Shown here one piece after another: positions 11,424-44,073 of a stretch of 64,000 nucleotides of DNA. Origin of the DNA: an uncultured Candidatus Saccharibacteria bacterium (lineage in GTDB: Bacteria; Patescibacteriota; Minisyncoccia; CAIUEV01; JAHKAQ01); contig CAZRBB010000004.1 in NCBI GenBank assembly GCA_964598205.1, forward strand, positions 2,324 through 66,323, written 5' to 3'. Every line of letters starts with the position of its first letter. Position 1 is the first letter of the stretch. A program made the translations under genes and the position numbers. The notes under the pieces were generated by a model. The model searched no databases. It worked only from the letters and a program-made list of their open reading frames with translations, and was not told where the DNA came from.

Positions 11424-11652
11424 CTTTTCAGAAATGATGTTCTTAGAGGAGGCTCCTTGTTCCCGTCACACAGAAAGAGATTAGAGGAATAACTGTTCCA
11501 AGCAGAAACAACTCAATTCTGTTTGGAACAGTTATTCCTCTAATCTCTAAAGCCTTAAGCTTTTTAGACAAAGTAGAGCAGGAACAAGGTGGAGTGAGGC
11601 CCGGTCGAGGCCGAGCGTACTCCGAGAAGAACATAGTTTCTGAAAAGCTTAT
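11424..11652. repeat. Family-A GC-rich palindromic intergenic element, copy A1 (reverse orientation, carries a nested hairpin module)
   Basis: GGAGGCTCCTTGTTCCCG ... AAGCTTTTTAG ... CAGGAACAAGGTGGAGTGAGGCCCGGTCGAGGCCGAGCGTACTCC. Outer arms GCTTTTCAGAAATGATGTTCTTAG and its complement. Coordinates approximate. Confidence 0.7.
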
Positions 11653-11772
11653 TTAGTAATTAGTCATCTGCAATTGAGTTATAAGCTGGCATCTTTTTTA
11701 TTGTTTATGATATAGTAGGATAAATTTGACTGATCGATGGGAAATAAAGAAAATAAATATTAAAAATAAAAG

Positions 11773-12408
11773 ATGAAGAAAAGAAGTTGTTGGGCAGGGG
11801 TCGCTGTAGGCGGACTGCTCCTAACTCTTCCTTTTTTGGCTCAGGCAAAAGATTCTGGAAGTGGTACAAAAATGAAGCTTAAAAACGCCAAGGTAATCCA
11901 AGTGCTTTCGGAACAGGGAATGGTTGTGGTTCAAAAGTCGGGCGGAGTTTACAACATTGCCTTGGGCTTGGCCGATCCAGACAAGACCGAACTTTTAAGC
12001 AAATACGGAATCATGGTTGATCCTTTTAAGCTGGAATCTGGCGATCATCTTACTTGCCGAGGAAGACGCTTTCCCAGCTACTTTATTCCTTCTAAATGTA
12101 AGATAGAGGAGGGATCTCAAAAAGATCTTTATAAAAAAGATAAAGGAGTAATGGTGGCCGATGTTTATGCCGCTGAAGATGGCTATATCTATGCAGCTCA
12201 TAGTTTAAACAAAACGAACCTAACTACCATTAAACAAGGGAAGTCTAAGATAACTTATAAAGGAGAGAATCGATCGTTAAGCAAATTAACTCCTTACTGG
12301 AGATTAAAAGTAAAAGGAGAATGGGATAAAGATCAGAACATGTTAAGAAAGGTTGATTACATTAAGATTACAGCGAAGCACAAGAACGAAACTCCTTACG
12401 GATACTAA
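11773..12408 (+). CDS. Secreted hypothetical protein (signal peptide)
   Basis: N-terminal MKKRSCWAGVAVGGLLLTLPFLAQA. No recognisable family. Confidence 0.5.
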   Translation: MKKRSCWAGVAVGGLLLTLPFLAQAKDSGSGTKMKLKNAKVIQVLSEQGMVVVQKSGGVYNIALGLADPDKTELLSKYGIMVDPFKLESGDHLTCRGRRFPSYFIPSKCKIEEGSQKDLYKKDKGVMVADVYAAEDGYIYAAHSLNKTNLTTIKQGKSKITYKGENRSLSKLTPYWRLKVKGEWDKDQNMLRKVDYIKITAKHKNETPYGY

Positions 12409-12473
12409 TCCTTTTGACTTTTTGGGCTGAGGCTTTTAACATTACCGTGTTAGTTAATTTTTAAATAAAAAAA

Positions 12474-12692
12474 ATGGCAGAAGATATTTCTAAACAAGAT
12501 TCCCAAGAAGAAACAACCGTGGTGTTTGATTTAGACGCTTGCACTCGTTGCATGGCGTGCGTGGCTAACTGTCCCACTAAATGTTTAGAGGAAGTAGATG
12601 GCGATCCGGTTCAAACCAAGCCCAAGGATTGTATTCGCTGTGGGACTTGCGAAGCGACTTGTTCGGTAGAAGCGGTAAAACTTAAATCCTAG
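12474..12692 (+). CDS. 2x[4Fe-4S] ferredoxin
   Basis: Two cysteine clusters: CTRCMACVANCP and CIRCGTCEATC. Confidence 0.8.
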   Translation: MAEDISKQDSQEETTVVFDLDACTRCMACVANCPTKCLEEVDGDPVQTKPKDCIRCGTCEATCSVEAVKLKS

Positions 12693-12701
12693 TAGCGGAT
12701 C

Positions 12702-12810
12702 TACGCATTTGGCACATTTCTTCGTTAAAACCAAACTTACTCGCTCACCGTAACCTAATTACGCTTCGCTCGTTCGTTTGGTTTTGCCTTGAACTGCGCT
12801 CAAATGCGTA
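12702..12810. repeat. Family-B repeat element, copy B1
   Basis: Core CATTTCTTCGTTAAAACC..TACTCGCTCACCGTAAC..AATTACGCTTCGCTCGTTCG..GGTTTTGCCTTGAACTG. Flanked by the copy-specific inverted repeat TACGCATTTG / CAAATGCGTA. Coordinates approximate. Confidence 0.65.
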
Positions 12811-12844
12811 AATCCTGGTTTGTTCTCTATATTAAATTTATTTT

Positions 12845-12871
12845 TTAGCACTCGTCCTTGACGAGTGCTAA
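12845..12871 (+). promoter_or_regulatory. CIRCE operator (HrcA-binding heat-shock element) upstream of groEL
   Basis: Perfect match to the consensus TTAGCACTC-N9-GAGTGCTAA: TTAGCACTCGTCCTTGACGAGTGCTAA. It lies about 55 bp upstream of the groEL start. Confidence 0.85.
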
Positions 12872-12900
12872 ATTTTTTTGCTACATTTTTAGTGCAATAA

Positions 12901-14574
<1,674 letters not shown>

Positions 14575-14602
14575 TTTTTTCCAAGAAAGTTTTAGGATAA
14601 AA

Positions 14603-14631
14603 AAGAAGCCGGTAAAACGGCTTCTTTTTTT
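14603..14631 (+). terminator. Rho-independent terminator after groEL
   Basis: Hairpin AGAAGCCGG-TAAAA-CCGGCTTCT followed by a T7 run. Confidence 0.6.
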
Positions 14632-14671
14632 ATGTTGAATTACTAATTTTGAGTAATGGTTTAAGAAAGAT

Positions 14672-14817
14672 TTTTCCCAAGCCAATATTCTTCCTGGAGT
14701 ACGCTCGGTCTTGATCGGGCCTCGCTCCGCCTTGTTCCTGCTTTGCTTTACCTAAAAAGCTTGGAGTTTAATAGGCGGGAACAAGGAGCCTCCTCTAAGA
14801 ATATTGGCTTGGGAAAG
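14672..14817. repeat. Family-A element, copy A2
   Basis: GGAGTACGCTCGGTCTTGATCGGGCCTCGCTCCGCCTTGTTCCTG...CTAAAAAGCTT...GGCGGGAACAAGGAGCCTCCTCTAAGAA. Outer arms TTTCCCAAGCCAATATTC / GAATATTGGCTTGGGAAA. Confidence 0.7.
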
Positions 14818-14851
14818 TTAGTAGTTTTATAATTCGCAATCCGTAATTGTT

Positions 14852-15934
14852 CTAGAGGTCTTCTCTGGTTTTAATGTATTCAATTGCGGATTCAAAAGCT
14901 TCAAAGCTGTTGGCGATTACAATTTTATCTCGCATAACAATGTAGTTTAGTGAAACGGAGCCGTCGTTTAAGAAATTAATATAGCGACCACCTGGATATT
15001 TACTGCTGCTAGTAAATGTTTTATTTTTAGCGTTGGCAATAAAGTCGTAGTCTTCTCCTAAAAGAAGGAAGCTTTTTAGATCTTCCGATAAATAATTTTC
15101 CCAACGCTTCATAACTTCTTCGGTTTTTTTGTAATCGGAAAAGTTTGATTCTAGAATCAAAACTGTTTTGGGATTTTTACTAGAAAAAGTGAGATTCATA
15201 AAAAAATAATATTTAGAAGTAACAATTTCGTTTACATAATAGGGGATGGTTATCTTTGATCTTTCTGCAAAACGGGCCAAGGAAAGCCGATCGATGTTTT
15301 TGTCGTAGAAATTGAATTCTGTTTCCTGGTTTTTTATTTCGGCAAAGTAATCTTCTAATAGACGATTAATATCGGCTCCTTCTTCTAGAGAAATATTTTT
15401 TTGAGTGGCGGTGTTTTCTGGAAGTTTTTTATTGGGATCTACTGGATCGGTCGGCTTTTCTACTGGATCGGTCGGCTTTTCTGGGGGATCAGTGGGTTTT
15501 TCTGCTGGATCAGTGGGATTTTCTTTAGGATTGACTGGAGTAACCGGATCTTTCTGTTTATTTTTAGTAACCAAAAAAAGAATTATGGCCGTTAGAAAAA
15601 TTCCACCAACAATAAGGCCACCAATGGTGATAATTTTTTTAGTTTCTGAATCTCCTTCGGGAATTTCTTCTAATTCAGGGAATTCTTTAAGATTTATAAA
15701 TTGGTTTTTATCTCTACTGTTGGGACTATTTGCTTTTTTAATATCCGAAGAAGTAGGTGAAGAAGGTCCATAACCGTAAGAAGAAGATTCTGATCCAGGC
15801 ATAGCAGTAGCTATTGGAGGAGCTTGATTGATTACTGGTGAAGGCGCTGGGGTAGTTGGTGGTCGAAAAGCCGGATCAACTGGAGTAAAATCTTGTTGAT
15901 TGTTGGGATTGATTGATGGATCGACGGGGGGCAT
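14852..15934 (-). CDS. Single-pass membrane protein with proline-rich N-terminus and tandem EKPTDPx heptad repeats; function unknown
   Basis: The ORF has one TM helix (IITIGGLIVGGIFLTAIILFLV) and four 21-bp DNA repeats. The repeats encode PTDPAEKPTDPPEKPTDPVEKPTDPV. The start is set at the internal ATG (MPPVDPS). The six-frame ORF begins at a TTG 42 nt upstream at 15976. Confidence 0.6.
   Translation of the reverse strand: MPPVDPSINPNNQQDFTPVDPAFRPPTTPAPSPVINQAPPIATAMPGSESSSYGYGPSSPTSSDIKKANSPNSRDKNQFINLKEFPELEEIPEGDSETKKIITIGGLIVGGIFLTAIILFLVTKNKQKDPVTPVNPKENPTDPAEKPTDPPEKPTDPVEKPTDPVDPNKKLPENTATQKNISLEEGADINRLLEDYFAEIKNQETEFNFYDKNIDRLSLARFAERSKITIPYYVNEIVTSKYYFFMNLTFSSKNPKTVLILESNFSDYKKTEEVMKRWENYLSEDLKSFLLLGEDYDFIANAKNKTFTSSSKYPGGRYINFLNDGSVSLNYIVMRDKIVIANSFEAFESAIEYIKTREDL
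15450..15533. repeat. Tandem 21-bp repeat (4 units) inside the CDS, encoding the heptad repeats
   Basis: TACTGGATCGGTCGGCTTTTC x2, then TGGGGGATCAGTGGGTTTTTC and TGCTGGATCAGTGGGATTTTC. Confidence 0.7.
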
Positions 15935-16155
15935 TTTATTTTTATTTAAGCCAAGTGAATCCAAAGAAAAAAACAACTTTCTTGATTATAAATTTTTTAG
16001 GAATTAAAAGCCAGCTTATGAATTACGAATTTTGAATTTCGAATTTCGAAATAATTTGGAAAGTAGAATTTTTAAATTTATTTGAAATTAAAAATTCTTT
16101 ATTCATAATTTTTGTGCTATTCTTTGAGGAAGATAGTAGTTTTACAAAAATAAAA

Positions 16156-17907
16156 ATGCCAAAAACAAATGATCAGTTGGCGCAGTTTCTTTTAGATTCT
16201 GGACTAGTAACCAAAACAGAGATAGAAGAAGCTCAAAAGGCGGTCCCTAGTAAAAAGTGGGCTCAATTTTTGGTGGAAAAAAAAATAATTAGCGATGAAC
16301 AGTTGCATAAAGCCTATGCTTATGTGAATGGTATTCCTTATGTAGATTTGGAGAATGTTCTTATTTCTAAAGAAGTTTTGCGAGTTATTCCAGAGTCTAT
16401 TGCTAGAAAAAACAATATTGTTGCTTTTCAGAAAGAAGATGGTCGCTTGAAGGTGGCAATGCTTGATCCCGACAATCTTCCAGTAATTGATTTTATTAGA
16501 AAGAAAACGGAATTTAAAATAATTCCTTGTCTTACTTCTCAAAAATCAATCGCTAAGGTTCTAAATCAATACCAAAAATCATTGCAGGCTGAATTTGGAG
16601 AAATTATTGAAAAGAATTCCCAAACGGCTTTGATTAAAAATGGTGGTAGCAGTGAAGATGATTTAAAAAAGGCAGCGGCTGATCTGCCGGTGGTTAAGAT
16701 TGTGAATACTTTGATTAAACACGCTATTCTGCAGTTGGCGAGTGATATCCACATTGAACCATTAGAAGAAGGAATGATTGTGCGTTACCGAATTGACGGA
16801 ATATTGCACGATACAATGAATTTATCTAAAGAGATTTTACCGTTTATTGTGGCAAGAATTAAAGTTCTAGCTAACTTAAAATTAGACGAACATCGTTTAC
16901 CTCAAGATGGTCGGTTTAAAATGGCCGAAGAAAACGCCGATATTTCTTTTCGGGTTTCTATTCTTCCGGTATATGGAGGAGAGAAGGTGGTGATGCGGGT
17001 ATTAGATGAATCATCAAAGGGACTTACCTTGGAACAAATGGGAATGGATGGAAAAGCTTTGGAAGCGGTGCAGGTGGCTTTTCGAAGACCTAATGGAATG
17101 ATTCTAGTTTCTGGACCAACAGGAAGCGGTAAAACGACCACGCTTTACACCGTATTAGATATTCTTAATTCCCGAGAAGTAAATATTAGCACCGTGGAGG
17201 ATCCGATTGAATACCGAATGCCAGGAGTTAATCAAACACAAGTAATGGCTAAGATTGGATTAACTTTTTCGGCGGGATTGCGATCACTTTTGCGCCAAGA
17301 TCCGGATATTATTATGGTGGGGGAAATTCGGGATGCAGAAACTGCGGAAATAGCGGCTCATGCAGCAATGACTGGTCACTTGGTGCTTTCCACTATTCAC
17401 ACCAATTCGGCGGCGGCTTCCTTGCCTCGCTTAATAGATATGGGAGTAGAGCCTTTTTTGGTAGCCACAACGCTAAATGTGGTAATTGCCCAACGCTTGG
17501 TTAGAAAAATCTGTCCAAACTGCCAGGAAAATTATCGTTTAGACAAAGATCAACTAAATTCCCTTTCTCAAATGGCGGACTTGAATCAACTAATTACTTT
17601 TTTAAAGAAAGATCCTCGTTCGGCTAAAGAAGCGGCTAAAATGAAAAATCTTACCAGTATTGACTTTCGACATGGGAAAGGTTGTGAGCGTTGTAATCAA
17701 ACGGGTTATAAGGGGCGAGCGGGAGTTTTTGAAGTACTAGAAGTGGACGATGAAATTGCGAAAATGATTTCTAAGGGACAGAACTCGCTAGACATTGAAA
17801 CGCGGGCACGGGAAAAAGGAATGCGAACAATGTTTGAAGACGGATTCTTAAAGGCGATTCTAGGAATCACTACCATAGAAGAAGTATTAAGAGTGACAAG
17901 GGAATAG
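16156..17907 (+). CDS. pilB: Type IV pilus / T2SS assembly ATPase (GspE/PilB family)
   Basis: N-terminal GSPII_N-like domain. Walker A VSGPTGSGKTTTLYTVL. Asp/His boxes. C-terminal tetracysteine CPNC...CERC. The start is set at the ATG (MPKTNDQ). The six-frame ORF begins at a GTG 42 nt upstream at 16114. Confidence 0.9.
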   Translation: MPKTNDQLAQFLLDSGLVTKTEIEEAQKAVPSKKWAQFLVEKKIISDEQLHKAYAYVNGIPYVDLENVLISKEVLRVIPESIARKNNIVAFQKEDGRLKVAMLDPDNLPVIDFIRKKTEFKIIPCLTSQKSIAKVLNQYQKSLQAEFGEIIEKNSQTALIKNGGSSEDDLKKAAADLPVVKIVNTLIKHAILQLASDIHIEPLEEGMIVRYRIDGILHDTMNLSKEILPFIVARIKVLANLKLDEHRLPQDGRFKMAEENADISFRVSILPVYGGEKVVMRVLDESSKGLTLEQMGMDGKALEAVQVAFRRPNGMILVSGPTGSGKTTTLYTVLDILNSREVNISTVEDPIEYRMPGVNQTQVMAKIGLTFSAGLRSLLRQDPDIIMVGEIRDAETAEIAAHAAMTGHLVLSTIHTNSAAASLPRLIDMGVEPFLVATTLNVVIAQRLVRKICPNCQENYRLDKDQLNSLSQMADLNQLITFLKKDPRSAKEAAKMKNLTSIDFRHGKGCERCNQTGYKGRAGVFEVLEVDDEIAKMISKGQNSLDIETRAREKGMRTMFEDGFLKAILGITTIEEVLRVTRE

Positions 17908-17977
17908 CTTGCTTGGGATTTACGCGTTTGATGCATTTTTTTAATGTGCAAATCTCCATTATTATTAATTTTTTACG

Positions 17978-19192: not shown

Positions 19193-19228
19193 CCTTAATT
19201 TTGAATTACGAATTTTGAATTTCGAAAT

Positions 19229-19382
19229 AGAACTTTTGTGAACCAATGTCCTTTTCGGAGTACGCTCGCCCTCGACCATGGCTCGCTCCACCTTGTTCCT
19301 GTTTTCCTTTGTCTAAAAAGCTTAGGGTTCAGTAGGCGGGAACAAGGAGACTCCTCTAAGAACATTGGTTCACAAAAGTTCT
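19229..19382. repeat. Family-A element, copy A3
   Basis: Perfect outer arms AGAACTTTTGTGAACCAATG ... CATTGGTTCACAAAAGTTCT enclose the conserved core. Confidence 0.75.
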
Positions 19383-19405
19383 AAATTCAAAATTAATTAA
19401 AAAGA

Positions 19406-20746: not shown

Positions 20747-20775
20747 GGAATAATTATGAATTTTGAGTTTTGAAA

Positions 20776-20934
20776 TTTTTTACAGAACCAATGTCCTTTT
20801 CGGAGTACGCTCGCCCTCGACCATGGCTCGCTCCACCTTGTTCCTGTTTTCCTTTGTCTAAAAAGCTTAGGGTTCAGTAGGCGGGAACAAGGAGCCTCCT
20901 CTAAGAACATTGGTTCTGTAAAAAATTATTAAAA
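20776..20934. repeat. Family-A element, copy A4
   Basis: The core is near-identical to A3. The outer arms differ: TTTTTTACAGAACCAATG ... CATTGGTTCTGTAAAAAA. Confidence 0.75.
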
Positions 20935-20976
20935 GTCCGGTTTATAAAATTGACTAATAATTTTTAATTCAGAGTA

Positions 20977-21600: not shown

Positions 21601-21601
21601 A

Positions 21602-22993: not shown

Positions 22994-23088
22994 TGTATAA
23001 TACTTGTGAATTAACAATTACGAATTTTGAATTTTGAATTTTGATTAAAATTTGAAGTTAGAATTTTAATTGAGGCTCAAGATTAACA

Positions 23089-23160
23089 GGGACTAGAGAA
23101 GTATTTATTTAGTAGGCAAGGCTCTTAGTCTACTGAATGAATATTCCTCTGGTCTCTGTC
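23089..23160. repeat. Solo copy of the family-C hairpin module (the same module is nested in A6/A9 and, more divergently, in A1)
   Basis: GGACTAGAGAAGTATTTATTTAGTAG-GCAAGGCTCTTAG-TCTACTGAATGAATATTCCTCTGGTCTC. The loop GCAAGGCTCTTAG is shared with the inserts at 31336-31415 and 43959-44030. Confidence 0.6.
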
Positions 23161-23207
23161 AATGCGAACAAAGAGCCTTCTCTAAAATAAAAAATAATTT
23201 TCTTGCG

Positions 23208-24298: not shown

Positions 24299-24417
24299 AA
24301 AATCTTGTACAATGACACATTTCTTCGTTAAAACCGTCGTTACTCGCTTACCGTAACACAATTACGCTTCGCTCGTTCCTCCGGTTTTGCCTTGAACTGT
24401 GTCATTGTACAAGATTT
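24299..24417. repeat. Family-B repeat element, copy B2
   Basis: Core CATTTCTTCGTTAAAACCGTCGTTACTCGCTTACCGTAACACAATTACGCTTCGCTCGTTCCTCCGGTTTTGCCTTGAACTG. Flanked by the inverted repeat AATCTTGTACAATGACACA / TGTGTCATTGTACAAGATT. Confidence 0.65.
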
Positions 24418-30065: not shown

Positions 30066-30275
30066 CTTTTCCAAACTGATATCCTTTTCCCAGTTCGTTC
30101 GGCCTCGACCGGGCCTCGCTCCACCTTGTTTGTCATTCCGAACGCAGTGAGGAATCCCTTGTGCTAGAAAATAATTGTCAATTATAGACCAAGGGATCCT
30201 TCGCTTCGCTCAGGATGACAGATATTAGTAGGCGGGAACAAGGAGCCTCCTCAAAGGACATCAGTTTGGAAAAGC
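30066..30275. repeat. Family-A element, copy A5, interrupted by a nested miniature element
   Basis: Outer arms CTTTTCCAAACTGATATCC / GGACATCAGTTTGGAAAAG. The core ...GCTCCACCTTGTT is broken by an 89-bp insert before ...TTAGTAGGCGGGAACAAGGAGCC. Confidence 0.7.
30132..30220. mobile_element. Miniature ORF-less derivative (MITE) of the GIY-YIG element found at 63621-63995, nested in A5
   Basis: Left end GTCATTCCGAACGCAGTGAGGAATCCCTT. It matches 28/29 of the reverse complement of the right IR of the GIY-YIG element. Right end AAGGGATCCTTCGCTTCGCTCAGGATGAC. Confidence 0.7.
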
Positions 30276-31282: not shown

Positions 31283-31301
31283 GAATTTTTTTTATTTTAT
31301 T

Positions 31302-31512
31302 AAACTAATGTTCTTTGAGGAGGCTCCTTGTTCCCGCTGACAGAGACCAGAGGAGTATCCGTTCAGTAGACAAGGCTCTTAGTCTACTGAACGGATACTC
31401 CTCTGGTCTCTGTAGAGCTTTAAGCTTTTTAAACAAAGCTGACCAGGAACAAGGTGGAGCGAGGCCCGGTCGAGACCGAACGAACTTGGAAAAGAACATT
31501 AGTTTGAGAAAA
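31302..31512. repeat. Family-A element, copy A6 (reverse orientation, nested family-C hairpin 31336-31415)
   Basis: TTGAGGAGGCTCCTTGTTCCCG...AAGCTTTTTAAACAAAG...CAGGAACAAGGTGGAGCGAGGCCCGGTCGAGACCGAACGAAC. Outer arms AAACTAATGTTCTTT / AAAGAACATTAGTTT. Confidence 0.7.
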
Positions 31513-31537
31513 ATATAGTTCCTAAACTAAATATGAC

Positions 31538-32098
31538 ATGAAGATTTCTTTAGAAAAATTGGAAAAAAAGTTGCGAAATTGCCAAGCGTGTGAACTGGGA
31601 AAAGGGCGGACTAATTTGGTGTTTGGAGAGGGAAGCTTGGATGCAGACCTAATGTTTATTGGGGAAGGGCCAGGTCGGAAAGAAGATGAATTAGGTCGGC
31701 CATTTGTGGGGGCAGCTGGGAAATTTTTAGATGAGCTTTTAGCTTCGGTTGATTTAGAAAGAAAAGTTGTGTATATTGCCAATATTGTTAAATGTCGGCC
31801 ACCACAGAATCGCGATCCGTTGCCCCAAGAAGTAGAAGCTTGTTTTCCTTTTTTGGCTCGGCAGATTAAAGTGATTAAGCCAAAATTGCTGGTGCTTTTA
31901 GGCAGGCACTCTTTGGTGCGATTTATGCCACAAAAAACAATTTCTAAAGCACATGGCCAAGCTTTTCGGCGGGAATTTCCAGGATTAGGAAAGCAGGTAT
32001 TTTTTGCCATGTATCATCCAGCCGCTGCTCTTTACAATGGAGGTCTCAGAGAAACGCTTTTTCGGGATTTTAAAAGAATTCCAAAGATCCTAGGATAA
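31538..32098 (+). CDS. Uracil-DNA glycosylase, family 4 (4Fe-4S type)
   Basis: CQACELGKGRTNLVFGEG...LMFIGEGPG, GRPFVGAAGKFL, and NIVKCRPPQNRDP. Confidence 0.85.
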   Translation: MKISLEKLEKKLRNCQACELGKGRTNLVFGEGSLDADLMFIGEGPGRKEDELGRPFVGAAGKFLDELLASVDLERKVVYIANIVKCRPPQNRDPLPQEVEACFPFLARQIKVIKPKLLVLLGRHSLVRFMPQKTISKAHGQAFRREFPGLGKQVFFAMYHPAAALYNGGLRETLFRDFKRIPKILG

Positions 32099-32227
32099 TT
32101 GTGAATGACGAATTTTGAATTTTGATTAAAATTTGAATAATTAATTTTAAAATTAAAATCCATTTTAAAATTATTTTTTCTAAATTATTTCGAAATTCAA
32201 GCTTTAAAATTAAAAATTTAAAAATAG

Positions 32228-34242: not shown

Positions 34243-34243
34243 T

Positions 34244-34319
34244 TGGCGCGTCTGGCAGGAATCGAACCCGCAACCTCTTGGTCCGAAGCCAAGCGCTCTA
34301 TCCGTTGAGCTACAGACGC
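34244..34319 (-). tRNA. tRNA-Arg (TCG), CCA encoded
   Basis: GCGTCTGTAGCTCAACGGATAGAGCGCTTGGCTTCGGACCAAGAGGTTGCGGGTTCGATTCCTGCCAGACGCGCCA. Anticodon loop CTTCGGA. Confidence 0.75.
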
Positions 34320-34374
34320 TTATCTAGTGTTATCACTTGTTTAGTTTAGTCAATCGTTCCGTAAAGTCAAAGAC

Positions 34375-34503
34375 TTTCTTTAATTACGAATTATGAATTA
34401 CGAATTTCGATTAAAGACCAAGTTTTTTAATTTAGAAACGGGCTCGTTTTTAAATTCTAATTTTTAATTTTAATCGAAATTTGTAATTCATAATTCGTAA
34501 TTC
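34375..34503. repeat. Family-D AT-rich palindromic intergenic element (example copy)
   Basis: AATTACGAATTATGAATTACGAATTTCGATTAAA ... TTTAATCGAAATTTGTAATTCATAATTCGTAATT (inverted arms). Confidence 0.6.
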
Positions 34504-34510
34504 AAAAAAG

Positions 34511-35239
34511 GTGCTTTCTTTTTTTTCTGAATCAAAAAATATTAGAGCGGTGATGTCTGTGGCGTCCGATGGTCCCATGGAAAGAGTGGCTAATAAAAAT
34601 GAAAATATTTTAGAGGCTCCCAACCGTTTTCGGTTTTTTTTAAAGAACGGTATTGATTCGCAAAGAACAGTTTCCTTAGAGCTAAAGGCGGGTTCTGTGG
34701 CTGGTGTTCTTTTGGAAGTTCCTCCGAATGGAGTTTATTCCGAAGCTGATGGCCTAGTAACTAAATTACCAGGAGTGTTTCTTACTGCCACGGCAGCAGA
34801 TTGCGCCTTAGTTTTTCTCTGGGAAGAAAAAGCAGGAATAGTTGGGATTTGTCATGCTGGTTGGCGAGGAGTGGCACAGGGGATAATCAAGAACACGATT
34901 AAAAAAATCTTGGTTATTAGGGGTGAACTTTCTAGCGTTCGTGCTGTAATTTCCCCGGCACTTGGGGTTTGTTGTTTTGAAATCAAAGAAGATGTGGCTT
35001 CCATTTTTAATAATTTGGGATTTTCTCTTTTTATAAAAAAGAAAAAAGGCCGGTTGTTTTTAGATTTAAAGGGGATAATCAAAAAGCAACTAGAAAATTC
35101 AGGATTAAAGTCCGAAAATATTACAATTAGTTCTGATTGTACTTTTTGCGATCCAAAGTATTTTTCTTATCGCCAAAGTGGAGATAACATAAATAAAGGT
35201 CCAATTTCTTTAATGATCGGTGCCATAGGGATTGTTTAA
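34511..35239 (+). CDS. pgeF: Peptidoglycan editing factor PgeF / YfiH (laccase-domain) family
   Basis: TATAADCALVFL, ICHAGWRGVAQGI, and CTFCDPKYFSYRQ. GTG start, with an alternative internal ATG. Confidence 0.75.
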   Translation: MLSFFSESKNIRAVMSVASDGPMERVANKNENILEAPNRFRFFLKNGIDSQRTVSLELKAGSVAGVLLEVPPNGVYSEADGLVTKLPGVFLTATAADCALVFLWEEKAGIVGICHAGWRGVAQGIIKNTIKKILVIRGELSSVRAVISPALGVCCFEIKEDVASIFNNLGFSLFIKKKKGRLFLDLKGIIKKQLENSGLKSENITISSDCTFCDPKYFSYRQSGDNINKGPISLMIGAIGIV

Positions 35240-35413
35240 TTGCGAATTTCTAATTTTTAATTTCGACTAAAATTAGAATTATTAATTTTAAAACAAAGAT
35301 AATTTTATTCCAAAACCAAAAACCCCCAGATAGTTTAATGTCTAGGGGTATTGATTTTAAATTCGATTTTTTGAATTTAATCGAAATTAAAAATTAGAAA
35401 TTTAGAATTGGAT

Positions 35414-36340: not shown

Positions 36341-36373
36341 AGAAACATTAATTAATTATGAATTACGATTTAT

Positions 36374-36533
36374 ACCTTTTTCAAACTGATGTTCTTTTCG
36401 GAGTACGCTCGTCCTCGACCAGACCTCGCTCCACCTTGTTCCTGCATTCCTTTGTCTAAAAAGCTTAAAATCTAGTTGGTGGGAACAAGGAGCCTCCTCT
36501 AAGAACGACAGTTTGGAAAAGAGGCTAATCTTG
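36374..36533. repeat. Family-A element, copy A7
   Basis: GGAGTACGCTCGTCCTCGACCAGACCTCGCTCCACCTTGTTCCTG...CTAAAAAGCTT...GGTGGGAACAAGGAGCCTCCTCTAAGAAC. Outer arms CCTTTTTCAAACTGATGTTCTT / AAGAACGACAGTTTGGAAAAGAGG. Confidence 0.7.
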
Positions 36534-36670
36534 GCTGAATTCGTTTCCCGAAAGATAGATTCAAACAAGATTAAAAAAGAGATCTCTTCTTTTGGTTTCG
36601 GCTTTTTCTTATGTTAAAATAAAGCCGTTGAGTTTTTGTTTTTTTTGGAAACATTATTTAATAGCATAAA

Positions 36671-37357: not shown

Positions 37358-37367
37358 GAGCGTTAAC

Positions 37368-37934
37368 ATGAAGATTGTTTTGGGAATTTCCGGAAGGAAT
37401 GGTAGCGGTAAGGACACGGTTGCTGATTATCTTGTTTCTAAGCATCAAGCAGAAAAGCTGGTTTTTTCGGATCTTCTAACGGAAGCACTTTCTTTTTTTA
37501 TTACCAAAATTGGTCGATCTGATCATGCTTGGCTTTCTACTTTTCTTAGGGAGAAATATGGTGAAGGTATTTTAGGGGTAGCAATGAAAAGAAGAATCAA
37601 GCGCTCAACCGCTGATTTGGTGGTAGTTTCTGGCTTGCGAGATTTTGGTGAGCTTTCTATGATTCGCTCTTTTTCTAGCGGTTACTTGGTTTTTGTAGAA
37701 ACCGATCAAAAAGTTCGTTGGGAAAGGTTAAAAAAAAGAAACAAGAAGGCGGACGATACTGTTAGTTTTTTAAAATTTCAACGGCAAAAAGAAAAACTTC
37801 CTTCTGAAGCTTGGATTTCTGGATTAAAAGAAAAAGCAGATTTTATTATTAATAATAACAGTCAAAGAGAATTAGCCGAACAACAGGTAGAGAAAATACT
37901 GACTAAAATTTATTCCCGAGCAAATAATAATTAA
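37368..37934 (+). CDS. Deoxynucleoside-monophosphate kinase-like P-loop kinase (phage T4 gp1-like), paralog 1
   Basis: P-loop GRNGSGKDTVADYL of the RSGKDT type. 188 aa. Confidence 0.55.
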   Translation: MKIVLGISGRNGSGKDTVADYLVSKHQAEKLVFSDLLTEALSFFITKIGRSDHAWLSTFLREKYGEGILGVAMKRRIKRSTADLVVVSGLRDFGELSMIRSFSSGYLVFVETDQKVRWERLKKRNKKADDTVSFLKFQRQKEKLPSEAWISGLKEKADFIINNNSQRELAEQQVEKILTKIYSRANNN

Positions 37935-37981
37935 TTATTAGTTGATAAAGGACTATTAAAGATAAAGAAATAAATCTTGAT

Positions 37982-38533
37982 ATGAAAAAAATTTATTTGG
38001 GATTGGTTGGCGAAGCGGGGAGTGGCAAAAATACAGTGGCAGATTTTTTAGAGAAGCAGTTCGGTGCTCAAATAGTGACCTCTTCCTATCTTTTAAAAAA
38101 GGCTATTCAGATTTTTATTTCTAAGATTGGTCGAGCGGATTATATTTGGTTTGTGGAAAAATTAACTGAAAAATACGGTGAAGATATTATTTCCAAAGCA
38201 GTGGTAAAAAATATGCAGGAATTTTCGGCGCCGATTGTGGTTTTTAATGGTGTGCGTTTGCCGAGTGATTATGAGATGTTAAAAAAGATTGGTGGAATAT
38301 TGGTTTATGTAACGGCGGATTCTCGTGTACGTTGGCAAAGAGTTCAGAAGCGAGGTGAAAAATCAGACGACAGGGCTCCTTTTGAAGAGTTTATGGCAAT
38401 GCATAGCGCCAAGACGGAAATCAATGTTCCTAAAATAGGTCTTTTGGCGGACTATCAGATTAAAAACGATGGCTCTTTGGCAGACTTGGAGAAAGCAACG
38501 ACTTTGGTTATAGAAAAGATAGAAAAAGCCTAG
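37982..38533 (+). CDS. Deoxynucleoside-monophosphate kinase-like P-loop kinase (phage T4 gp1-like), paralog 2
   Basis: GEAGSGKNTVADFL. C-terminal IKNDGSLADLEKA, resembling the T4 gp1 NDGSLEEL tail. 183 aa. Confidence 0.6.
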   Translation: MKKIYLGLVGEAGSGKNTVADFLEKQFGAQIVTSSYLLKKAIQIFISKIGRADYIWFVEKLTEKYGEDIISKAVVKNMQEFSAPIVVFNGVRLPSDYEMLKKIGGILVYVTADSRVRWQRVQKRGEKSDDRAPFEEFMAMHSAKTEINVPKIGLLADYQIKNDGSLADLEKATTLVIEKIEKA

Positions 38534-38658
38534 GGATAATTTCGAATTTCGAATTTTGAATTTCGATTCAAGCTAGAATTCATAATTTAAAATAATTTAG
38601 AAATTCTAAATTATAATTTTATTCGAAATTAAAAATTCGAAATTAAGAATTAAATAAG

Positions 38659-40155
38659 ATGGCTTACAAAACTCGAATTGGTTTAGAGATTCATATTCAG
38701 CCAGAAACAGAGAGTAAAATGTTCTGTCGTTGCCCCAATGAATTTAATCCGGGGGAGCCAAATAAAAATATTTGCGAAATTTGTACTGGTCAGCCAGGAA
38801 CTCTACCGGCGGTTAATGAAGTAGCGGTAAGGGCGATTGTTAAGGCAGGAATGGCTTTGAATTGTTCTATTAATCGCCGAGCGCATTGGGATCGCAAGCA
38901 TTATTTTTATCCCGATTTGCCAAAAGGGTATCAGCTAACCCAAAATACAACACCTTTTTGTATTGGTGGATTTTTAGATGTGGATTACGAAGACAAAACT
39001 GGGGCAAAAAAAATCAAGCGAGTAGAAATTAATCGAATTCATTTAGAGGAAGATGCGGGGAAGGATTTGCATCCTGCTGGCGCTAATTATTCTTTGATTG
39101 ACTTAAATCGTGCTGGGGCGCCATTGATTGAACTAGTCACCGAGCCGGTAATAGAGAGCAAGGAACAGGCGACCGCTTTTTGCAAATCTTTACGGCAAAT
39201 TTTTCGCTATCTGAACATTTCTGCGGCGGACATGGAAAAAGGTCAAATGCGTTGTGAAGTGAATATTAGCTTAGAAGAAGAAGGAAAAGATCTTTCGGGA
39301 GTAAAAGTGGAAGTAAAGAATATTAACTCTTTTAAAGGTGTTTTAAAAAGCATTGCCTACGAAGAAGATCGGCAGAAAGAACTTTTGGAAAAAGGAGAAA
39401 AGATTGTGCCAGAAACTAGAGGCTGGGATGCTGATGCCGGCGTTACTATCTCTCAGCGGGCCAAAGAAGAAGCTTACGATTATCGTTATTTTCCAGACCC
39501 AGATATTCCGCCGGTTAATATTAACGACGAACTTTTTTTAGAGATTAAAAATTCACTTTCAGAATTACCAGGAGAAAAGAAAAAACGATTTTGTGCGGAC
39601 TATAAAATACCAGAACTCTTGGCTAATGATTTGGTTCTAGAAAAATCAGCGGCAGAATTTTTTGAAAATATTGTTTCAGAGATAGATAGTTTTTTAAAGG
39701 ATGAGAAAAAATTAAAACAAGAGTTAAGAGATAGAACGATTATTTTGGCGGCCAATTATTTTTCTACAGAAGTTTTTCGTTTGGCGGCTATGTCGGGCAT
39801 TGATTTTTCCGAATTCAAAATGACGAGTGAAAACTTTGCCGAACTAATGTTGATCATTGCCAAGGGAGAGATTAATTCTTCTGCGGCTCAAAAGATATTA
39901 AAAGAAATGTTTAGTTCGGGCGGTGACCCTTCGCAAATTATTGAGCGGGATAATTTAAAAATAGAAAAAGACTCGGGATTAGTTCTAGAAAAAGTAAAAG
40001 AGGTTCTTTTGGAAAATTCGGCCGCTAAGAGTGATTATCTTTCTGGGAAAGAAAAAGCATTGCAGTTTCTTTTGGGCCAAGTAATGGCCAAAACAAAAGG
40101 CAAGGCAGAACCCAAAGAAGCGCTAGAAATGTTGAAAAAGGAAATGGTGCAATAA
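38659..40155 (+). CDS. gatB: Asp/Glu-tRNA(Asn/Gln) amidotransferase subunit B
   Basis: MAYKTRIGLEIHIQ, FCRCPNEF, and GQPGTLPAVNE. C-terminal YqeY-like domain. Confidence 0.92.
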   Translation: MAYKTRIGLEIHIQPETESKMFCRCPNEFNPGEPNKNICEICTGQPGTLPAVNEVAVRAIVKAGMALNCSINRRAHWDRKHYFYPDLPKGYQLTQNTTPFCIGGFLDVDYEDKTGAKKIKRVEINRIHLEEDAGKDLHPAGANYSLIDLNRAGAPLIELVTEPVIESKEQATAFCKSLRQIFRYLNISAADMEKGQMRCEVNISLEEEGKDLSGVKVEVKNINSFKGVLKSIAYEEDRQKELLEKGEKIVPETRGWDADAGVTISQRAKEEAYDYRYFPDPDIPPVNINDELFLEIKNSLSELPGEKKKRFCADYKIPELLANDLVLEKSAAEFFENIVSEIDSFLKDEKKLKQELRDRTIILAANYFSTEVFRLAAMSGIDFSEFKMTSENFAELMLIIAKGEINSSAAQKILKEMFSSGGDPSQIIERDNLKIEKDSGLVLEKVKEVLLENSAAKSDYLSGKEKALQFLLGQVMAKTKGKAEPKEALEMLKKEMVQ

Positions 40156-40167
40156 AGTATAAAAATA

Positions 40168-40507
40168 AAGAGTCTGATTGGTGTATTTTCTTGGGAGACG
40201 CTCGATTTTTTTCCAGCGAAAAATCTCGCTAAATAATATTGGAAAAATTTCCAAAATAAATTTTGGAACCAAGCAATTTTTCCAATATATTCTCCCAAGA
40301 AGACACACCAATCAGACTCTTATATAATTTATTATTCGGTCGGAGTTCGTTCGGCCTCGACCGGTCCTCGCTCCACCTTGTTCCTGTTCTGTTTTGTCTA
40401 AAAAGCTTGAAGTTTGGCAGGGTGGGACCAAGGAGCCTCCTCAAAGAATATTAGCTTGGAAAATAAAAAGCCTGGTTAGTATATTCTCCCAAGAAGATAT
40501 ACCAATC
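40168..40507. repeat. Complex repeat region between convergent gatB and rpsP. Three copies of a roughly 34-bp sequence (one inverted, two direct) bracket the family-A copy A8 at about 40321-40460
   Basis: AAGAGTCTGATTGGTGTATTTTCTTGGGAGA (40168-). Its reverse complement ATATTCTCCCAAGAAGACACACCAATCAGACTCTT (40286-40320). A direct copy TATATTCTCCCAAGAAGATATACCAATCAGGCTTTT (40472-40507). Confidence 0.65.
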
Positions 40508-40532
40508 AGGCTTTTATTATAGAGTAAACAAT

Positions 40533-40964
40533 TTATTTTTCGGTTGGAGTTTTTTCGGTTGGAGTTTCTTTGATTTCTTTGGCTGTTTCGGTATTTGGAG
40601 AGGTTTCTGGAGCTGTTGTTTCTGGATTGGTTACGGCTGGAGTAGTGGGCGTGGCGGCGGGAGTATTCGGGGTAGTAGTTTCTTCTCCTTCTTTCTTTTT
40701 CTTTCTAAAAACAACTTTTCTCTTTGGTCCTTCTATAATTTTTTCTTTAACAAAGAGATTATGAACGGTGTCGCTGGTCTGGGCACCATTTTTAATCCAA
40801 TGAAGGATCCGTTCTTTTTTGAATTGGTTTATTTTTTGATGAGGATTCACGGAACCTAGGATTTCTAAAAACTTACCAGAAGCGGCTTTGCTTTTTTCTG
40901 CTACAACCAAGCGGTAATAAGCTTGATTCTTTTTGCCGACTCTTTGTAATCTGATAATCAACAT
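40533..40964 (-). CDS. rpsP: 30S ribosomal protein S16 with Pro/Thr-rich C-terminal extension
   Basis: MLIIRLQRVGKKNQAYYRLVVAEKSKAASGKFLE... The start is set at the ATG (MLIIRL) that matches S16 N-termini. The six-frame ORF begins 24 nt upstream at 40988. Low-complexity tail TTTPNTPAATPTTPAVTNPETTAPETSPNTE. Confidence 0.85.
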   Translation of the reverse strand: MLIIRLQRVGKKNQAYYRLVVAEKSKAASGKFLEILGSVNPHQKINQFKKERILHWIKNGAQTSDTVHNLFVKEKIIEGPKRKVVFRKKKKEGEETTTPNTPAATPTTPAVTNPETTAPETSPNTETAKEIKETPTEKTPTEK

Positions 40965-41070
40965 AAAAAATAAAAAATATTTAGACAACTAAAAAAAGAG
41001 GAAATAAAATTAATCTCTTTTGGATAGTAGATTAAAGAGTTGGTTCCGTCAATATAATCGTGAATTTTTA

Positions 41071-41232
41071 ATTACGAATTTTGAATTTCGATTAAAATTA
41101 GAATAATTAATTTAAAAACAAAAATATTATTGCGTACTTCCAGAAACTAAATCCGTTAGAATAGATTTAAGTCAAGATTGATTTTAAAATTCGAATTTCA
41201 GATTTTATTCAAAATTAAAAATTCGTAATTCT
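41071..41232. repeat. Family-D AT-rich palindromic element (copy with perfect arms GAATTACGAATTTT / AAAATTCGTAATTC)
   Basis: AATTACGAATTTTGAATTTCGATTAAAATTAGAAT ... AAAATTCGAATTTCAGATTTTATTCAAAATTAAAAATTCGTAATTC. Confidence 0.6.
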
Positions 41233-41283
41233 AAATTTAGAAAGTCTCTTTCCTATTTTAAAGGAGAACGCTAAGCTCTGATT

Positions 41284-41994
41284 ATGATAGAAGAAGATTC
41301 AATTTATAATTCGGTTAAGAAAAATTACAATCAAGGCGCTTGGGAGTTTTCGCGTTCTCGCACTTTCTTTTTTAGGGACTTAGAATTTATTAAAAATTAT
41401 CCTAAAAAAGAAGATAAAATTTTAGATTTTGGTTGTGGCAATGGGCGATTAATTGATTTTTTAAAAACTGACCCCAGTAATTATTGGGGAGTCGATGTTT
41501 CGGTGGAAATGCTTTGGGTAGCCAGAAAAATAAATCCCAATCATCGGTTCTTTTTAATCAAGAAGAAATTAGAAGAAACTCTTTCCAAGAATACTGAGTT
41601 TGATTTTATTTTTTCCGTTGGTGTTTTTCATCATCTACCTCCGGGAGAAAAAAGAAAAAAGATTGTTCAAGAAATATTCTCTTTTTTAAAACCAGGCGGT
41701 CGACTTTTTGTTTCCGTTTGGGATCTTGGTGGCGAGCGTTATGCTAAATTCCTAGAAGATAAGAAAGAGGCTTTAATTCCTTTTCGTTCTGGATCTGGTA
41801 ATGTCATTTTTGAGCGCTATTGCTATTCTTTTTCCCTAAAGGAATTGATTGGTATTCTAGAGGAGGCGGGATTTGTATTAGTTGAAAGCGGAAAGACCAA
41901 AAGGAACGGTAAACCGGCCAATATTTTTTGCTTAGTAGAAAAACCAATGGAAAAAAATGGTGATAAAAAAGAAACGAAAGAGTTAAAAGAATAG
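41284..41994 (+). CDS. Class I SAM-dependent methyltransferase
   Basis: Motif I ILDFGCGNGRLIDFL. Motif post-I WGVDVS. Motif II/III region. Confidence 0.75.
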   Translation: MIEEDSIYNSVKKNYNQGAWEFSRSRTFFFRDLEFIKNYPKKEDKILDFGCGNGRLIDFLKTDPSNYWGVDVSVEMLWVARKINPNHRFFLIKKKLEETLSKNTEFDFIFSVGVFHHLPPGEKRKKIVQEIFSFLKPGGRLFVSVWDLGGERYAKFLEDKKEALIPFRSGSGNVIFERYCYSFSLKELIGILEEAGFVLVESGKTKRNGKPANIFCLVEKPMEKNGDKKETKELKE

Positions 41995-42058
41995 AAATGT
42001 TTTTAGATGGATTTTATAAAATTTTTATATTTAGCTGGTTAAATAACTGTTGTTAACA

Positions 42059-43831
42059 ATGAGTTCCTTAGCAGAAAAAATAATTAGCTTAGCTTGGGAA
42101 AGAAAAATTTCTTCCGAAGAAGAGTTAAAATATCTTAAAAGAGAAGCAGCCAAGGGTGGCAAGGAGAACATTCCTAATAATCGGGAATTGGGTCGTGCCT
42201 ATTCTAAGCTTTTGGCGGAGGGGACTATTTCCCCTGATCCAATACTAGTAGATCTTTTGGTGCTAAAAAGAACTCGCACGCTTTCTGGTGTTTCTGTGGT
42301 AGCGACTTTAACGGCCTCTTATCCCTGTCGTAATCAATGCCTGTATTGTCCAGAAGAAAACAAAATGCCTAAAAGCTATCTTTCTAATGAGCCGGCAGTA
42401 ATGCGAGCAATCAAGCTTGATTTTGATCCTTATCTTCAGGTTCAAAAAAGAATAGGAGCCTTAGAATTAAATGGCCACGATGCTTCTAAGGTGGAGCTGA
42501 TTATTATGGGGGGGACTTTTTCTCATTTGCCAGTGCTTTACCAATATTGGTTTGTTTTGAACTGTTTTTTGGCGGCTAATGCTTTTAGCGGTTCAAAGAA
42601 AAATTCAAAGGTTAGAGCACTTAATTTAGAGGCAAAAAATATTTTGAAAAAATATTTTTTAAGGGCTAAAGAGGAAATGTTTGTTGCAGGAAGGTCGCTG
42701 ACCAAAAACAAGAAAAAGATTAAGCCGAGTTCTAAAATTGCAGAAAAAGAAAAAGACTGTTTTTTAAAAGATGATGGAAAGATTTTGGCAAAAATTAAAA
42801 TGGCTCTTTTGGCGGCTCAAAAAGAAAATCAAATCGCTAAGCACCGAATAGTGGGGCTTACCTTAGAAACCAGACCAGATTCCATAAATTTAAAAGAGCT
42901 AGTTAGATTCAGAAAGCTGGGCTGTACTCGCGTGGAAATAGGAGTGCAGTCGGTATTTACCAGGGTTCTTAAAAAAAATGAACGGGGACATGGTCGGCAA
43001 GAAATTATTAAAGCAACACAGCTTTTAAAAGAATTGGGTTTTAAAATAAACTATCACTTAATGCCTGGTCTTTGGGGATCTTCTTTTAAGTTGGATCAAA
43101 AACTTTTTGGCGAGGTGTTTAGCAATCAAGTTTTTCGGCCGGATATGTTAAAAATTTATCCTTGTGTGGTAGTAGCTGGATCGCCCTTGTTTTCTATTTG
43201 GCAACAAGGTCTTTACCATCCTTATTCTAACGATGAATTATTTCGGCTTTTGGCTTTTGTTAAAAAGAGGATTCCACGCTATGTGCGGATTGCCAGGGTG
43301 ATTAGAGACATTCCTACTGATTCAATTGTGGCTGGTCCCAACATTCCCAATTTAAGGGAAATGCTTAAAAAAAGAGGAGTGGTTTGCCAATGTATTCGTT
43401 GCCGAGAAGCGGGAAGAATTGTTTGGGAAAAATCGGCTCCTGTAAAATTAAAAAGAACTAATTACAAAGCTTCTGGTGGGCAAGAAATATTTTTAGAATT
43501 TTTAACCAAAGAAGCTCTACATGCTTTTTTACGATTAAGAATTCCTGCTTTTATTCTTAAAAAGAAACCAACACCACTCAAAGAGTTAAAAGGAGCGGCA
43601 ATGATTAGAGAAGTTCATTCTTATGGTCAGGTGGCGCCGATTGGAGAAAAAATAAAAGGCACTTCTCAACACCAAGGATTCGGCAAACGGTTAATTAAGG
43701 AAGCCGAAAAAATTGTTAAGGAAGAATACAAATTAAAAAAAATCGCGGTGATTGCCGCGGAAGGAACTAAAGAATATTATTTTTCTTTGGGATTTAAGGA
43801 AGAGGGACTTTATCTAATGAAGGAAATCTAA
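42059..43831 (+). CDS. Elp3-like radical SAM + GNAT enzyme (tRNA wobble-uridine carboxymethyl synthase family)
   Basis: N-terminal CRNQCLYCP (CxxxCxxC). Radical SAM core. C-terminal GNAT motif QHQGFGKRLIKEAEKI. The start is set at the ATG (MSSLAEK). The six-frame ORF begins at a TTG 9 nt upstream at 42050. Confidence 0.75.
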   Translation: MSSLAEKIISLAWERKISSEEELKYLKREAAKGGKENIPNNRELGRAYSKLLAEGTISPDPILVDLLVLKRTRTLSGVSVVATLTASYPCRNQCLYCPEENKMPKSYLSNEPAVMRAIKLDFDPYLQVQKRIGALELNGHDASKVELIIMGGTFSHLPVLYQYWFVLNCFLAANAFSGSKKNSKVRALNLEAKNILKKYFLRAKEEMFVAGRSLTKNKKKIKPSSKIAEKEKDCFLKDDGKILAKIKMALLAAQKENQIAKHRIVGLTLETRPDSINLKELVRFRKLGCTRVEIGVQSVFTRVLKKNERGHGRQEIIKATQLLKELGFKINYHLMPGLWGSSFKLDQKLFGEVFSNQVFRPDMLKIYPCVVVAGSPLFSIWQQGLYHPYSNDELFRLLAFVKKRIPRYVRIARVIRDIPTDSIVAGPNIPNLREMLKKRGVVCQCIRCREAGRIVWEKSAPVKLKRTNYKASGGQEIFLEFLTKEALHAFLRLRIPAFILKKKPTPLKELKGAAMIREVHSYGQVAPIGEKIKGTSQHQGFGKRLIKEAEKIVKEEYKLKKIAVIAAEGTKEYYFSLGFKEEGLYLMKEI

Positions 43832-43852
43832 TGAATTTTAAATTTTAATTAA

Positions 43853-44073
43853 TAGCTTTTCTGAAATATCGTTCTTCTCGGAGTACGCTCGGCCTCGACC
43901 GGGTCTCGCTCCACCTTGTTCCTGTTTTATTTCACCTAAAAAGCCTAAAGCTTTATAGAAACCAGAAGAGTATTTATTCAGTAGACTAAGAGCCTTGTCT
44001 ACTGAATAAATACTCTTCTGGTTTCTATGGCGGGAACAAGGAGCCTCCTTGAAGAACATTATTTCAGAAAAGC
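43853..44073. repeat. Family-A element, copy A9 (with nested family-C hairpin 43959-44030)
   Basis: GGAGTACGCTCGGCCTCGACCGGGTCTCGCTCCACCTTGTTCCTG...CTAAAAAGCCTAAAGC...[hairpin]...GGCGGGAACAAGGAGCCTCCTTGAAGAAC. Outer arms GCTTTTCTGAAATATCGTTCTTC / GAAGAACATTATTTCAGAAAAGC. Confidence 0.7.

Follow-up and report, generated by a model that had tools for sequence, protein, structure and literature searches.

A hairpin-forming, probably mobile repeat family in the intergenic DNA of a Moranbacteria-like contig

Introduction

The ERIC elements (also IRU) of Enterobacteriaceae are imperfect palindromes of 127 bp with a conserved central region, and their longer variants arise from internal insertions at fixed positions. 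Some insertion sequences target hairpins: IS1397 and ISKpn1 insert into the loops of REP sequences, while IS200/IS605 elements and group IIC introns enter at stem-loops. The genomes of bacteria of the candidate phyla radiation (CPR, Patescibacteria) are generally described as greatly reduced in size, streamlined and poor in mobile elements. Among the papers searched, none linked CPR bacteria to repeats of the REP, REPIN or MITE (miniature inverted-repeat transposable element) type. REPINs are REP doublets that form hairpins and are mobilised by RAYT (TnpA-REP) proteins (Bertels and Rainey 2011, PMC3116915), and the bcr1 elements of the Bacillus cereus group measure approximately 155 bp (PMC3184786). 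Here we describe family A, a hairpin-forming repeat of approximately 150-230 bp that recurs between the genes of a 64-kb stretch of DNA (the window), itself a section of a 198-kb contig from JGI metagenome 3300045131.

The reading that best fits the observations is that family A is a lineage-specific, non-coding, non-autonomous selfish hairpin repeat, which has spread by insertion into AT-rich intergenic DNA; we give this a probability of roughly 0.6. On the same reading it would be a new repeat family, akin in behaviour to REPIN, ERIC and bcr1 but a member of none of them.

Copies and structure of family A

Copies were located with an nhmmer profile built from the aligned copies and run with all filters off (--max). 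The search covered 84 kb of one contig, composed of the window and adjoining upstream (L008) and downstream (L012) sequences. Copies c1 to c10 lie within the window, and c11 and c12 beyond its right end (Table 1). An earlier, sequence-only reading of this DNA had proposed at least nine copies; the profile recovered nine full copies in the window, matching the coordinates of that reading (E-values 1e-38 to 1e-49), together with a truncated one (c5), which gave only a weak, partial match at 23151-23185. Two further full copies were found approximately 5-6 kb past the right end of the window (L012:15253-15476, minus strand, and L012:16586-16737, plus strand), bringing the total to 11 full copies and one truncated. 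When up to three mismatches were allowed, the window contained nine occurrences of the left core motif (CTCGCTCCACCTTGTTCCTG) and 10 of the right one (GGGAACAAGGAGCCTCCTC), versus 0.01 and 0.00, respectively, in dinucleotide-preserving shuffles. The same loci were recovered by a repeat finder.

As the sequence-only reading had noted, all copies are intergenic and both orientations are represented; the chance that 10 random points would all fall between genes is P ~3e-9. Convergent gene pairs hold copies at three places in the window (four if c12 is included), and three copies (c1, c8 and c11) lie in divergent promoter regions. The observed copies cluster along the contig: the profile found none at positions 1-11400 or 44100-64000 of the window, nor in the 9.3 kb of new upstream sequence. 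Between 8.9 and 48.7 kb, family A accounts for approximately 31% of the DNA between genes and 4.3% of the total.

The element is composed of an outer stem and a core, separated by an internal loop of 2-3 nt. The outer stem is 21-25 bp long, has a GC content of 19-40% and ends roughly in (A)GCTTTTC...GAAAAGC(T). Its arms had been described as copy-specific; they do pair within each copy, but they are not unrelated, since they are homologous between copies over their full length (consensus CTTTTCCAAACYAATGTTCTT / AAGAACATTRGTTTGGAAAAG) and differ by compensated changes. The core, of approximately 100 nt, has 61-66% GC versus 37% for the genome. On its left side GGAG pairs with CTCC on the right, and CCTTGTTCC with GGAACAAGG. 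Between these two left blocks lies a segment of approximately 30 nt (ACGCTCGSCCTCGACCNNNNCTCGCTCCA) that reads ACGCTCG(G/C)CCTCGACC....CTCGCTCCA and has no right-hand partner, so the element is polar. With this one-sided segment and an apical loop of approximately 35 nt, which includes CTAAAAAGCTT, the initial description of the copies as fully palindromic does not hold.

In c1, c5, c7, c10 and c11 the apical loop contains, at the same position, a second near-perfect hairpin of approximately 74-80 nt, which we call D10 (arms AGAGACCAGAGGARTAT...TTCAGTAGAC, loop TAAGAGCCTTG). The long form of the element (200-230 bp) is therefore the short form plus a nested hairpin. D10 of c7 and D10 of c10 differ at four positions per arm, each change being mirrored on the opposite arm, whereas D10 of the truncated c5 has accumulated mismatches and its loop is flipped. 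The 9-mer GTTCAGTAG is present in the apical loop of the short copies c3 and c4 (19329-19345 and 20874-20890) and also forms the inner stem of D10 in c7; D10 of c5, c10 and c11 has ATTCAGTAG in its place. Since GTTCAGTAG is common to the loop of these short copies and the D10 stem of c7, the long form may be a palindromic expansion of that loop, or the short form a deletion product.

Empty sites in related genomes

The GroEL protein encoded in the window shares 80-84% identity with GroEL proteins labelled Candidatus Moranbacteria or Patescibacteria group, and by sequence comparison the contig is assigned to a Moranbacteria-like lineage of the CPR. The relatives used for comparison, with GroELs 81-84% identical, were L006 (a 1.2-Mb contig), L018 and, for the groEL region only, L007; the closest relatives found do not exceed 84% GroEL identity. 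They keep the gene order groEL / 400-aa gene (minus strand) / pilB / pilC / 450-aa gene / 206-aa gene / 460-aa gene / pilM. At the sites of c2, c3, c4 and c5 their intergenic gaps measure 43-110 bp versus 214-278 bp, with an element inside, in the window, a contrast drawn at the between-species level in intergenic DNA that does not align so as to place exact insertion points. A profile search of L006, L007, L018, L020 and L021 revealed no copy of family A. Empty syntenic gaps and the lack of copies elsewhere thus point to lineage-specific insertions. As far as these data show, family A would have arrived after the split from relatives at approximately 81-84% GroEL identity and would be confined to one lineage.

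Where short contigs from sibling samples overlap the window, their identity to it is 100%, the only difference being one single-base gap in the 12 kb of L009. Such contigs start or end within copies, L003 doing so in c1 at one end and in c2 at the other, as is typical of assemblies broken by a multi-copy repeat. A GC-rich hairpin repeat of a different kind (CCCTCCCTTCATCAGGGAGGG...) was seen on both sides of groEL (9791-9898 and 11672-11782) in L021, a different Moranbacteria-like relative. Hairpin repeats restricted to one lineage may be widespread in this group.

Conservation of pairing in the outer stem

Nine of the 11 full copies fold into a long hairpin on either strand (z = -5.5 to -17). 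Folding of c8 is weaker (z = -3.8/-2.2), and c9, whose left arm is degenerate, does not fold (z = -0.9/-0.1); the view that every copy is one long hairpin is thus correct for 10 of the 11 full copies and wrong for c9. Two-sided changes affect 13 of the 21 pairs of the outer stem. The number of compensated cells is 36, compared with 12.3 ± 3.0 in column shuffles, none of which reached 36 in 500 trials, and with 3-7 in slid controls, where partners were shifted by 1-3 columns. This supports the earlier suggestion that the stems are kept by compensatory change. Watson-Crick pairs account for 93% of the arm cells. The inner helices are invariant between copies and hence uninformative on covariation.

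Identity between copies is 0.69-0.72 in the arms, 0.73 in the unpaired loop and 0.86-0.93 in the core, and the element varies most at its termini. The arms have diverged like the loop yet are still paired, and the constraint is therefore on pairing and not on arm sequence. In short, the arms are free to change in sequence but constrained in their pairing, and the sequence of the core is either constrained or homogenised. Copies c3 and c4, which are 1.5 kb apart and flank one gene, share an 89-nt core stretch (19255-19343 in c3) with 100% identity and agree at 0.99 of the core columns overall; their outermost arm nucleotides differ. The arms of c6 match those of c8, but its core variant (CCAGTTCGTTCGG) matches c7 and c9. 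This disagreement between arm and core histories suggests recombination or conversion between copies. Two copies have decayed: c5 has lost its left half and c9 its left arm.

Covariation of this strength would also be expected of a structured RNA that serves the host, with copies in 5′ or 3′ untranslated regions (UTRs) and a hairpin acting on mRNA stability or processing, as an entry site for RNase III/E or by protection of 3′ ends. Effects on mRNA stability or processing have been reported for ERIC, Correia and bcr1 elements, and such a role can coexist with a mobile origin. Selection on an RNA fold would explain the compensated arms. According to the tally of pair types, approximately three quarters of the compensated cells are transition/transition changes, and about 5% of the arm cells are wobble (G:T) or A:C intermediates, which is also consistent with an RNA. 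Placement points the same way: four of the five copies between co-directional genes (truncated c5 counted) are sense-oriented, and many copies begin 20-50 nt past a stop codon. Moreover, c8 and c11 are 34 nt from a start codon (for c8 that of a minus-strand beta-helix gene) and so either belong to a 5′ UTR or supply a promoter.

Several observations do not fit an RNA function. Copy c7 is antisense between two plus-strand genes (encoding endonuclease IV-like and UDG proteins), c2 lies beyond the terminator of groEL, the relatives run the same operons without the element, two copies have decayed, and no Rfam family was matched. The arm mismatches (seven A:C, three G:T) reveal no excess of G:U over A:C on the element strand and both strands fold equally well, so the constraint fits one acting at the DNA level or one that is strand-neutral. 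For these reasons, and with c7 antisense, the covariation does not decide between RNA and DNA. Overall, we consider a host-functional RNA an unlikely explanation of the family.

Searches for related sequences and for a mobilising enzyme

The sequence-only reading recognised no described repeat or RNA family in these copies, and database searches agree. Screening of the window against Rfam matched only four tRNAs at the gathering threshold; with a permissive threshold, nothing overlapped c3/c4 better than a miRNA-precursor match of 16 bits (E = 4.8). Family A had no blastn match among plasmids or phages, nor did c3, searched in distant mode, among 5,426 complete E. coli genomes. Exact-core scans of GTDB genomes (one per species, 185,579), JGI metagenome contigs and IMG/VR returned only chance seed-only matches, in collections that do not contain the source contig and from which its genome-wide copies therefore could not be gathered.

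Open reading frames spanning the core had been dismissed as by-products of nucleotide conservation. These frames lack homologues and a conserved start codon and are not called as genes in the source annotation, and a chimeric six-frame translation of the element gave zero matches in a set of 5.8 billion proteins; the coding interpretation was rejected. A diversity-generating retroelement was likewise rejected by inspection, as the differences between copies are not adenine-specific and the copies are intergenic.

No target-site duplication was identified: the best flanking direct repeats, all in AT-rich DNA, are 0-4 nt long and agree in neither sequence nor offset. Since target-site duplications and conserved termini are lacking while the folded form is conserved, the element would be handled as a single-stranded hairpin, as REPINs and IS200/IS605-type elements are by HUH/Y1 enzymes, and a DDE cut-and-paste transposase is disfavoured as the mover. 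The GC-rich asymmetric core would be the module recognised by the protein that copies or moves the element. The outer stem would be needed as a stem alone, with its pairing kept and its sequence not, and the apical loop would tolerate, or attract, additional hairpin insertions. The decay of c5 and c9 would be expected if the host can do without individual copies. Effects on neighbouring genes, e.g. on mRNA stability, would be a secondary consequence.

A mobile element and a structure kept by compensatory change had been offered as two competing explanations. By analogy with described systems they are not real alternatives, because compensatory change is documented in mobile hairpin repeats, both in REPINs (PMC3116915) and in bcr1 (reviewed in PMC3184786).

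Several points weigh against a selfish mobile repeat. No transposase or RAYT-like gene was found in the 84 kb examined, where the sole recombinase is a XerC/D-like integrase. Comparison of the sibling-sample contigs with the window revealed no presence/absence polymorphism within the population, and the case for mobility draws only on fairly distant relatives. The covariation counts come from 11 copies, a small sample in which relatedness inflates them. Finally, conservation is higher in the core than at the termini, opposite to the pattern in most MITEs, and a host function could explain this equally well; as an alternative, the conserved asymmetric core may be a domesticated protein-binding or RNA module.

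A classical MITE, i.e. what deletion leaves of a DDE-type insertion sequence, still mobile by cut-and-paste through the terminal inverted repeats, would share with family A a small size, the lack of coding capacity, inverted-repeat ends and intergenic positions in both orientations, and it would account for the empty syntenic sites in relatives. However, the ends on which such a transposase would act are here the part that varies most. Duplications of consistent length or sequence do not flank the copies, a parent insertion sequence or transposase is absent from the 84 kb, and the exact scans found no other record with the core motifs. From the original proposal of a MITE-like mobile element with long terminal inverted repeats, insertion can be retained on the evidence of the empty sites, but the termini are not conserved as those of a MITE would be; with target-site duplications lacking too, a MITE in the strict sense is very unlikely.

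The groEL gene has a canonical intrinsic terminator of its own (AAGAAGCCGG-TAAAA-CGGCTTCTTTTTTT, approximately 14600-14632), with c2 beginning approximately 40 nt past it, and the groEL orthologues of L006 and L007, where the element is missing, also end in a canonical terminator. An intrinsic or bidirectional terminator, as once proposed, or an ancient regulatory hairpin kept by descent, would suit very stable hairpins placed between genes, convergent pairs included, but is extremely improbable for elements that have no U-tract (T-run) after the stem on either strand, were not reported in any copy by a terminator scan, occur in divergent promoter regions as well and are absent from relatives.

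Comparison with described hairpin repeats

Like REPINs, family A is a non-autonomous intergenic unit that forms a long hairpin with compensatory changes on both sides, lacks target-site duplications, is specific to a lineage and leaves single or decayed remnants. The arrangement of conserved and free parts is opposite: the ends of a REPIN (two REP 16-mers) are conserved and its middle is free, whereas in family A the middle is conserved and the ends drift. Family A is also larger (150-230 nt with an asymmetric core, compared with approximately 70-110 nt), carries no GTAG/CGTC end tag, shows no sequence similarity to REPINs and has no RAYT gene in the 84 kb.

The bcr1 elements resemble family A in size, in a distribution that is not conserved between relatives and in a fold maintained by compensatory base changes (PMC3184786). 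Unlike family A, they are flanked by 5-bp direct repeats; they are transcribed, belong to another phylum and have no sequence similarity to it. With ERIC elements family A shares an imperfectly palindromic form and intergenic location in either orientation. It differs from them in sequence (no similarity in the blastn comparison of c3 with E. coli genomes), in its far more variable arms, and in lacking both the TA flanks and the target duplications reported for elements of the ERIC type (PMC3184786).

Nested and neighbouring palindromes

A second intergenic family consists of AT-rich palindromes of 110-190 bp, which are inverted arrays of the heptamer AATTTYG (e.g. AATTACGAATTTTGAATTTCGA ... 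TCGAAATTAAAAATTCGTAATT); some have a small central GC hairpin. They are absent from the syntenic gaps of the relatives, and seven stand-alone examples were distinguished in the window (Table 1). A larger AT-rich palindrome encloses c1, and inverted AT-rich heptamer arrays enclose c10. The flanks beyond the arms of c1, c3, c10 and c12 (and, marginally, of c11) are mutual inverted repeats (z = 3.4-7.1 versus shuffles), so family A there sits within a larger palindrome. The simplest interpretation of this nesting, which is a positional observation and not a demonstrated target preference, would be that elements inserted into pre-existing palindromes, at their centres or close to them.

The palindrome in the apical loop of c6, which has the form GTCATTCCGA(A/G)CG...GAGGAATCCC, is found again at 63620-63650, beside an AT-rich array near the window end; it may resemble a short repeat of many unrelated genomes. 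The long palindrome that abuts the left arm of c9 lies just after gatB and has 31-nt arms with 94% complementarity (AAGAGTCTGATTGGTGTATTTTCTTGGGAGA / TCTCCCAAGAAGACACACCAATCAGACTCTT). A third repeat family, of approximately 87 nt (TGGCACATTTCTTCGTTAAAACC...CGCTTCGCTCG...GGTTTTGCCTTGAACTG) and with an internal palindrome, is represented at 12710-12796, 24313-24399 and 61252-61338. Its second copy has additional 24-nt outer arms (24300-24417), and at the third there is a 54-nt direct repeat pair with 96% identity (61213-61266 and 61347-61400). A CGCT(T)CGCTCG-like motif is common to this family and the family A core, possibly by coincidence.

As a lead only, the arrangement recalls BIMEs and the insertion sequences that target hairpins, in that intergenic DNA is a mosaic of palindromic families with one centred in another: here D10 is inside family A, another palindrome is inside family A, and family A is inside AT-rich palindromes. 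Carried further, the nesting might reflect a hierarchical hairpin-in-hairpin system of at least four palindromic families, each integrating at the centre of another, which we find quite unlikely. In such a system the AT-rich heptamer palindromes would enclose family A, which would in turn enclose D10 or the GTCATTCC palindrome. It would imply integration targeted to exposed hairpin loops or cruciform centres in a CPR host without a recognisable transposase, and arm complementarity would be kept by copying or repair on a folded single strand and not by selection alone.

The gene content around the repeats is of the housekeeping type (a ClpC/B-like ATPase, GroEL, two type IV pilus clusters, GatB, Elp3, PolA, rubrerythrin and desulfoferrodoxin). 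Upstream of groEL there is a CIRCE heat-shock operator (TTAGCACTC-N9-GAGTGCTAA, 12844-12872), and a CIRCE-like inverted repeat (…TTAGCACTCG / CGAGTGCTAA…) precedes groEL in L006 (9914-9970). The full-length bacterial Elp3 homologue (42050-43831; a radical SAM/GNAT tRNA-modification enzyme; TIGR01211, E = 8.5e-151) is noteworthy in a CPR genome, since Elp3 homologues are uncommon in bacteria. The GC skew is uniformly and strongly positive (approximately +0.13 to +0.35) from approximately 4 kb onward, falling near zero at 34-36 kb, and most window genes are on the plus strand; from approximately 4 kb on, the window is thus probably one leading-strand replichore segment. Nine of the 12 family A copies share the leading-strand orientation of the skew, which is not significant.

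Table 1. Family A copies and stand-alone AT-rich palindromes of the window (window coordinates)
Feature	Form	Coordinates	Strand	Context and remarks
c1	long	11422..11649	-	nested hairpin 11476-11548; between divergent clpC-like and 211-aa genes
c2	short	14672..14817	+	convergent gap downstream of groEL
c3	short	19229..19382	+	starts 37 nt past pilC stop codon
c4	short	20776..20927	+	starts 30 nt past stop codon of 446-aa pilin-like gene
c5	truncated	23086..23185	+	nested hairpin 23086-23159 (loop flipped) and degenerate right core 23164-23182; left half gone
c6		30066..30275	+	apical loop holds unrelated palindrome GTCATTCCGAACGCAGTGAGGAATCC... (30131-30220)
c7	long	31302..31512	-	nested hairpin 31340-31413
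c8	short	36374..36530	+	divergent gap, 140 nt upstream of tmk
c9		40321..40460	+	core intact, left arm degenerate; adjoined by palindrome 40168-40321
c10	long	43853..44073	+	nested hairpin 43955-44028; starts 22 nt past elp3 stop codon
AT-rich palindrome	stand-alone	16016-16122
AT-rich palindrome	stand-alone	32097-32218
AT-rich palindrome	stand-alone	34374-34510
AT-rich palindrome	stand-alone	35238-35409
AT-rich palindrome	stand-alone	38537-38652
AT-rich palindrome	stand-alone	41053-41237
AT-rich palindrome	stand-alone	63529-63618

Biological significance

By itself, family A overturns nothing, being in kind with elements of the REPIN, ERIC and bcr1 type. What sets it apart is its density, the pattern of a conserved core with free arms, and the nested architecture. 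In a 40-kb housekeeping stretch (groEL, the type IV pilus operon, gatB and elp3), roughly one third of the DNA between genes belongs to this one family, which has several other palindromic families around and inside it. If it is abundant genome-wide, the repeat would account for assembly breaks in these metagenome-assembled genomes, and it would provide a marker for strain typing as well as naturally occurring data on the retention of hairpin pairing during sequence drift. A further question it poses is what enzyme would mobilise hairpin DNA in a host whose gene set is minimal.

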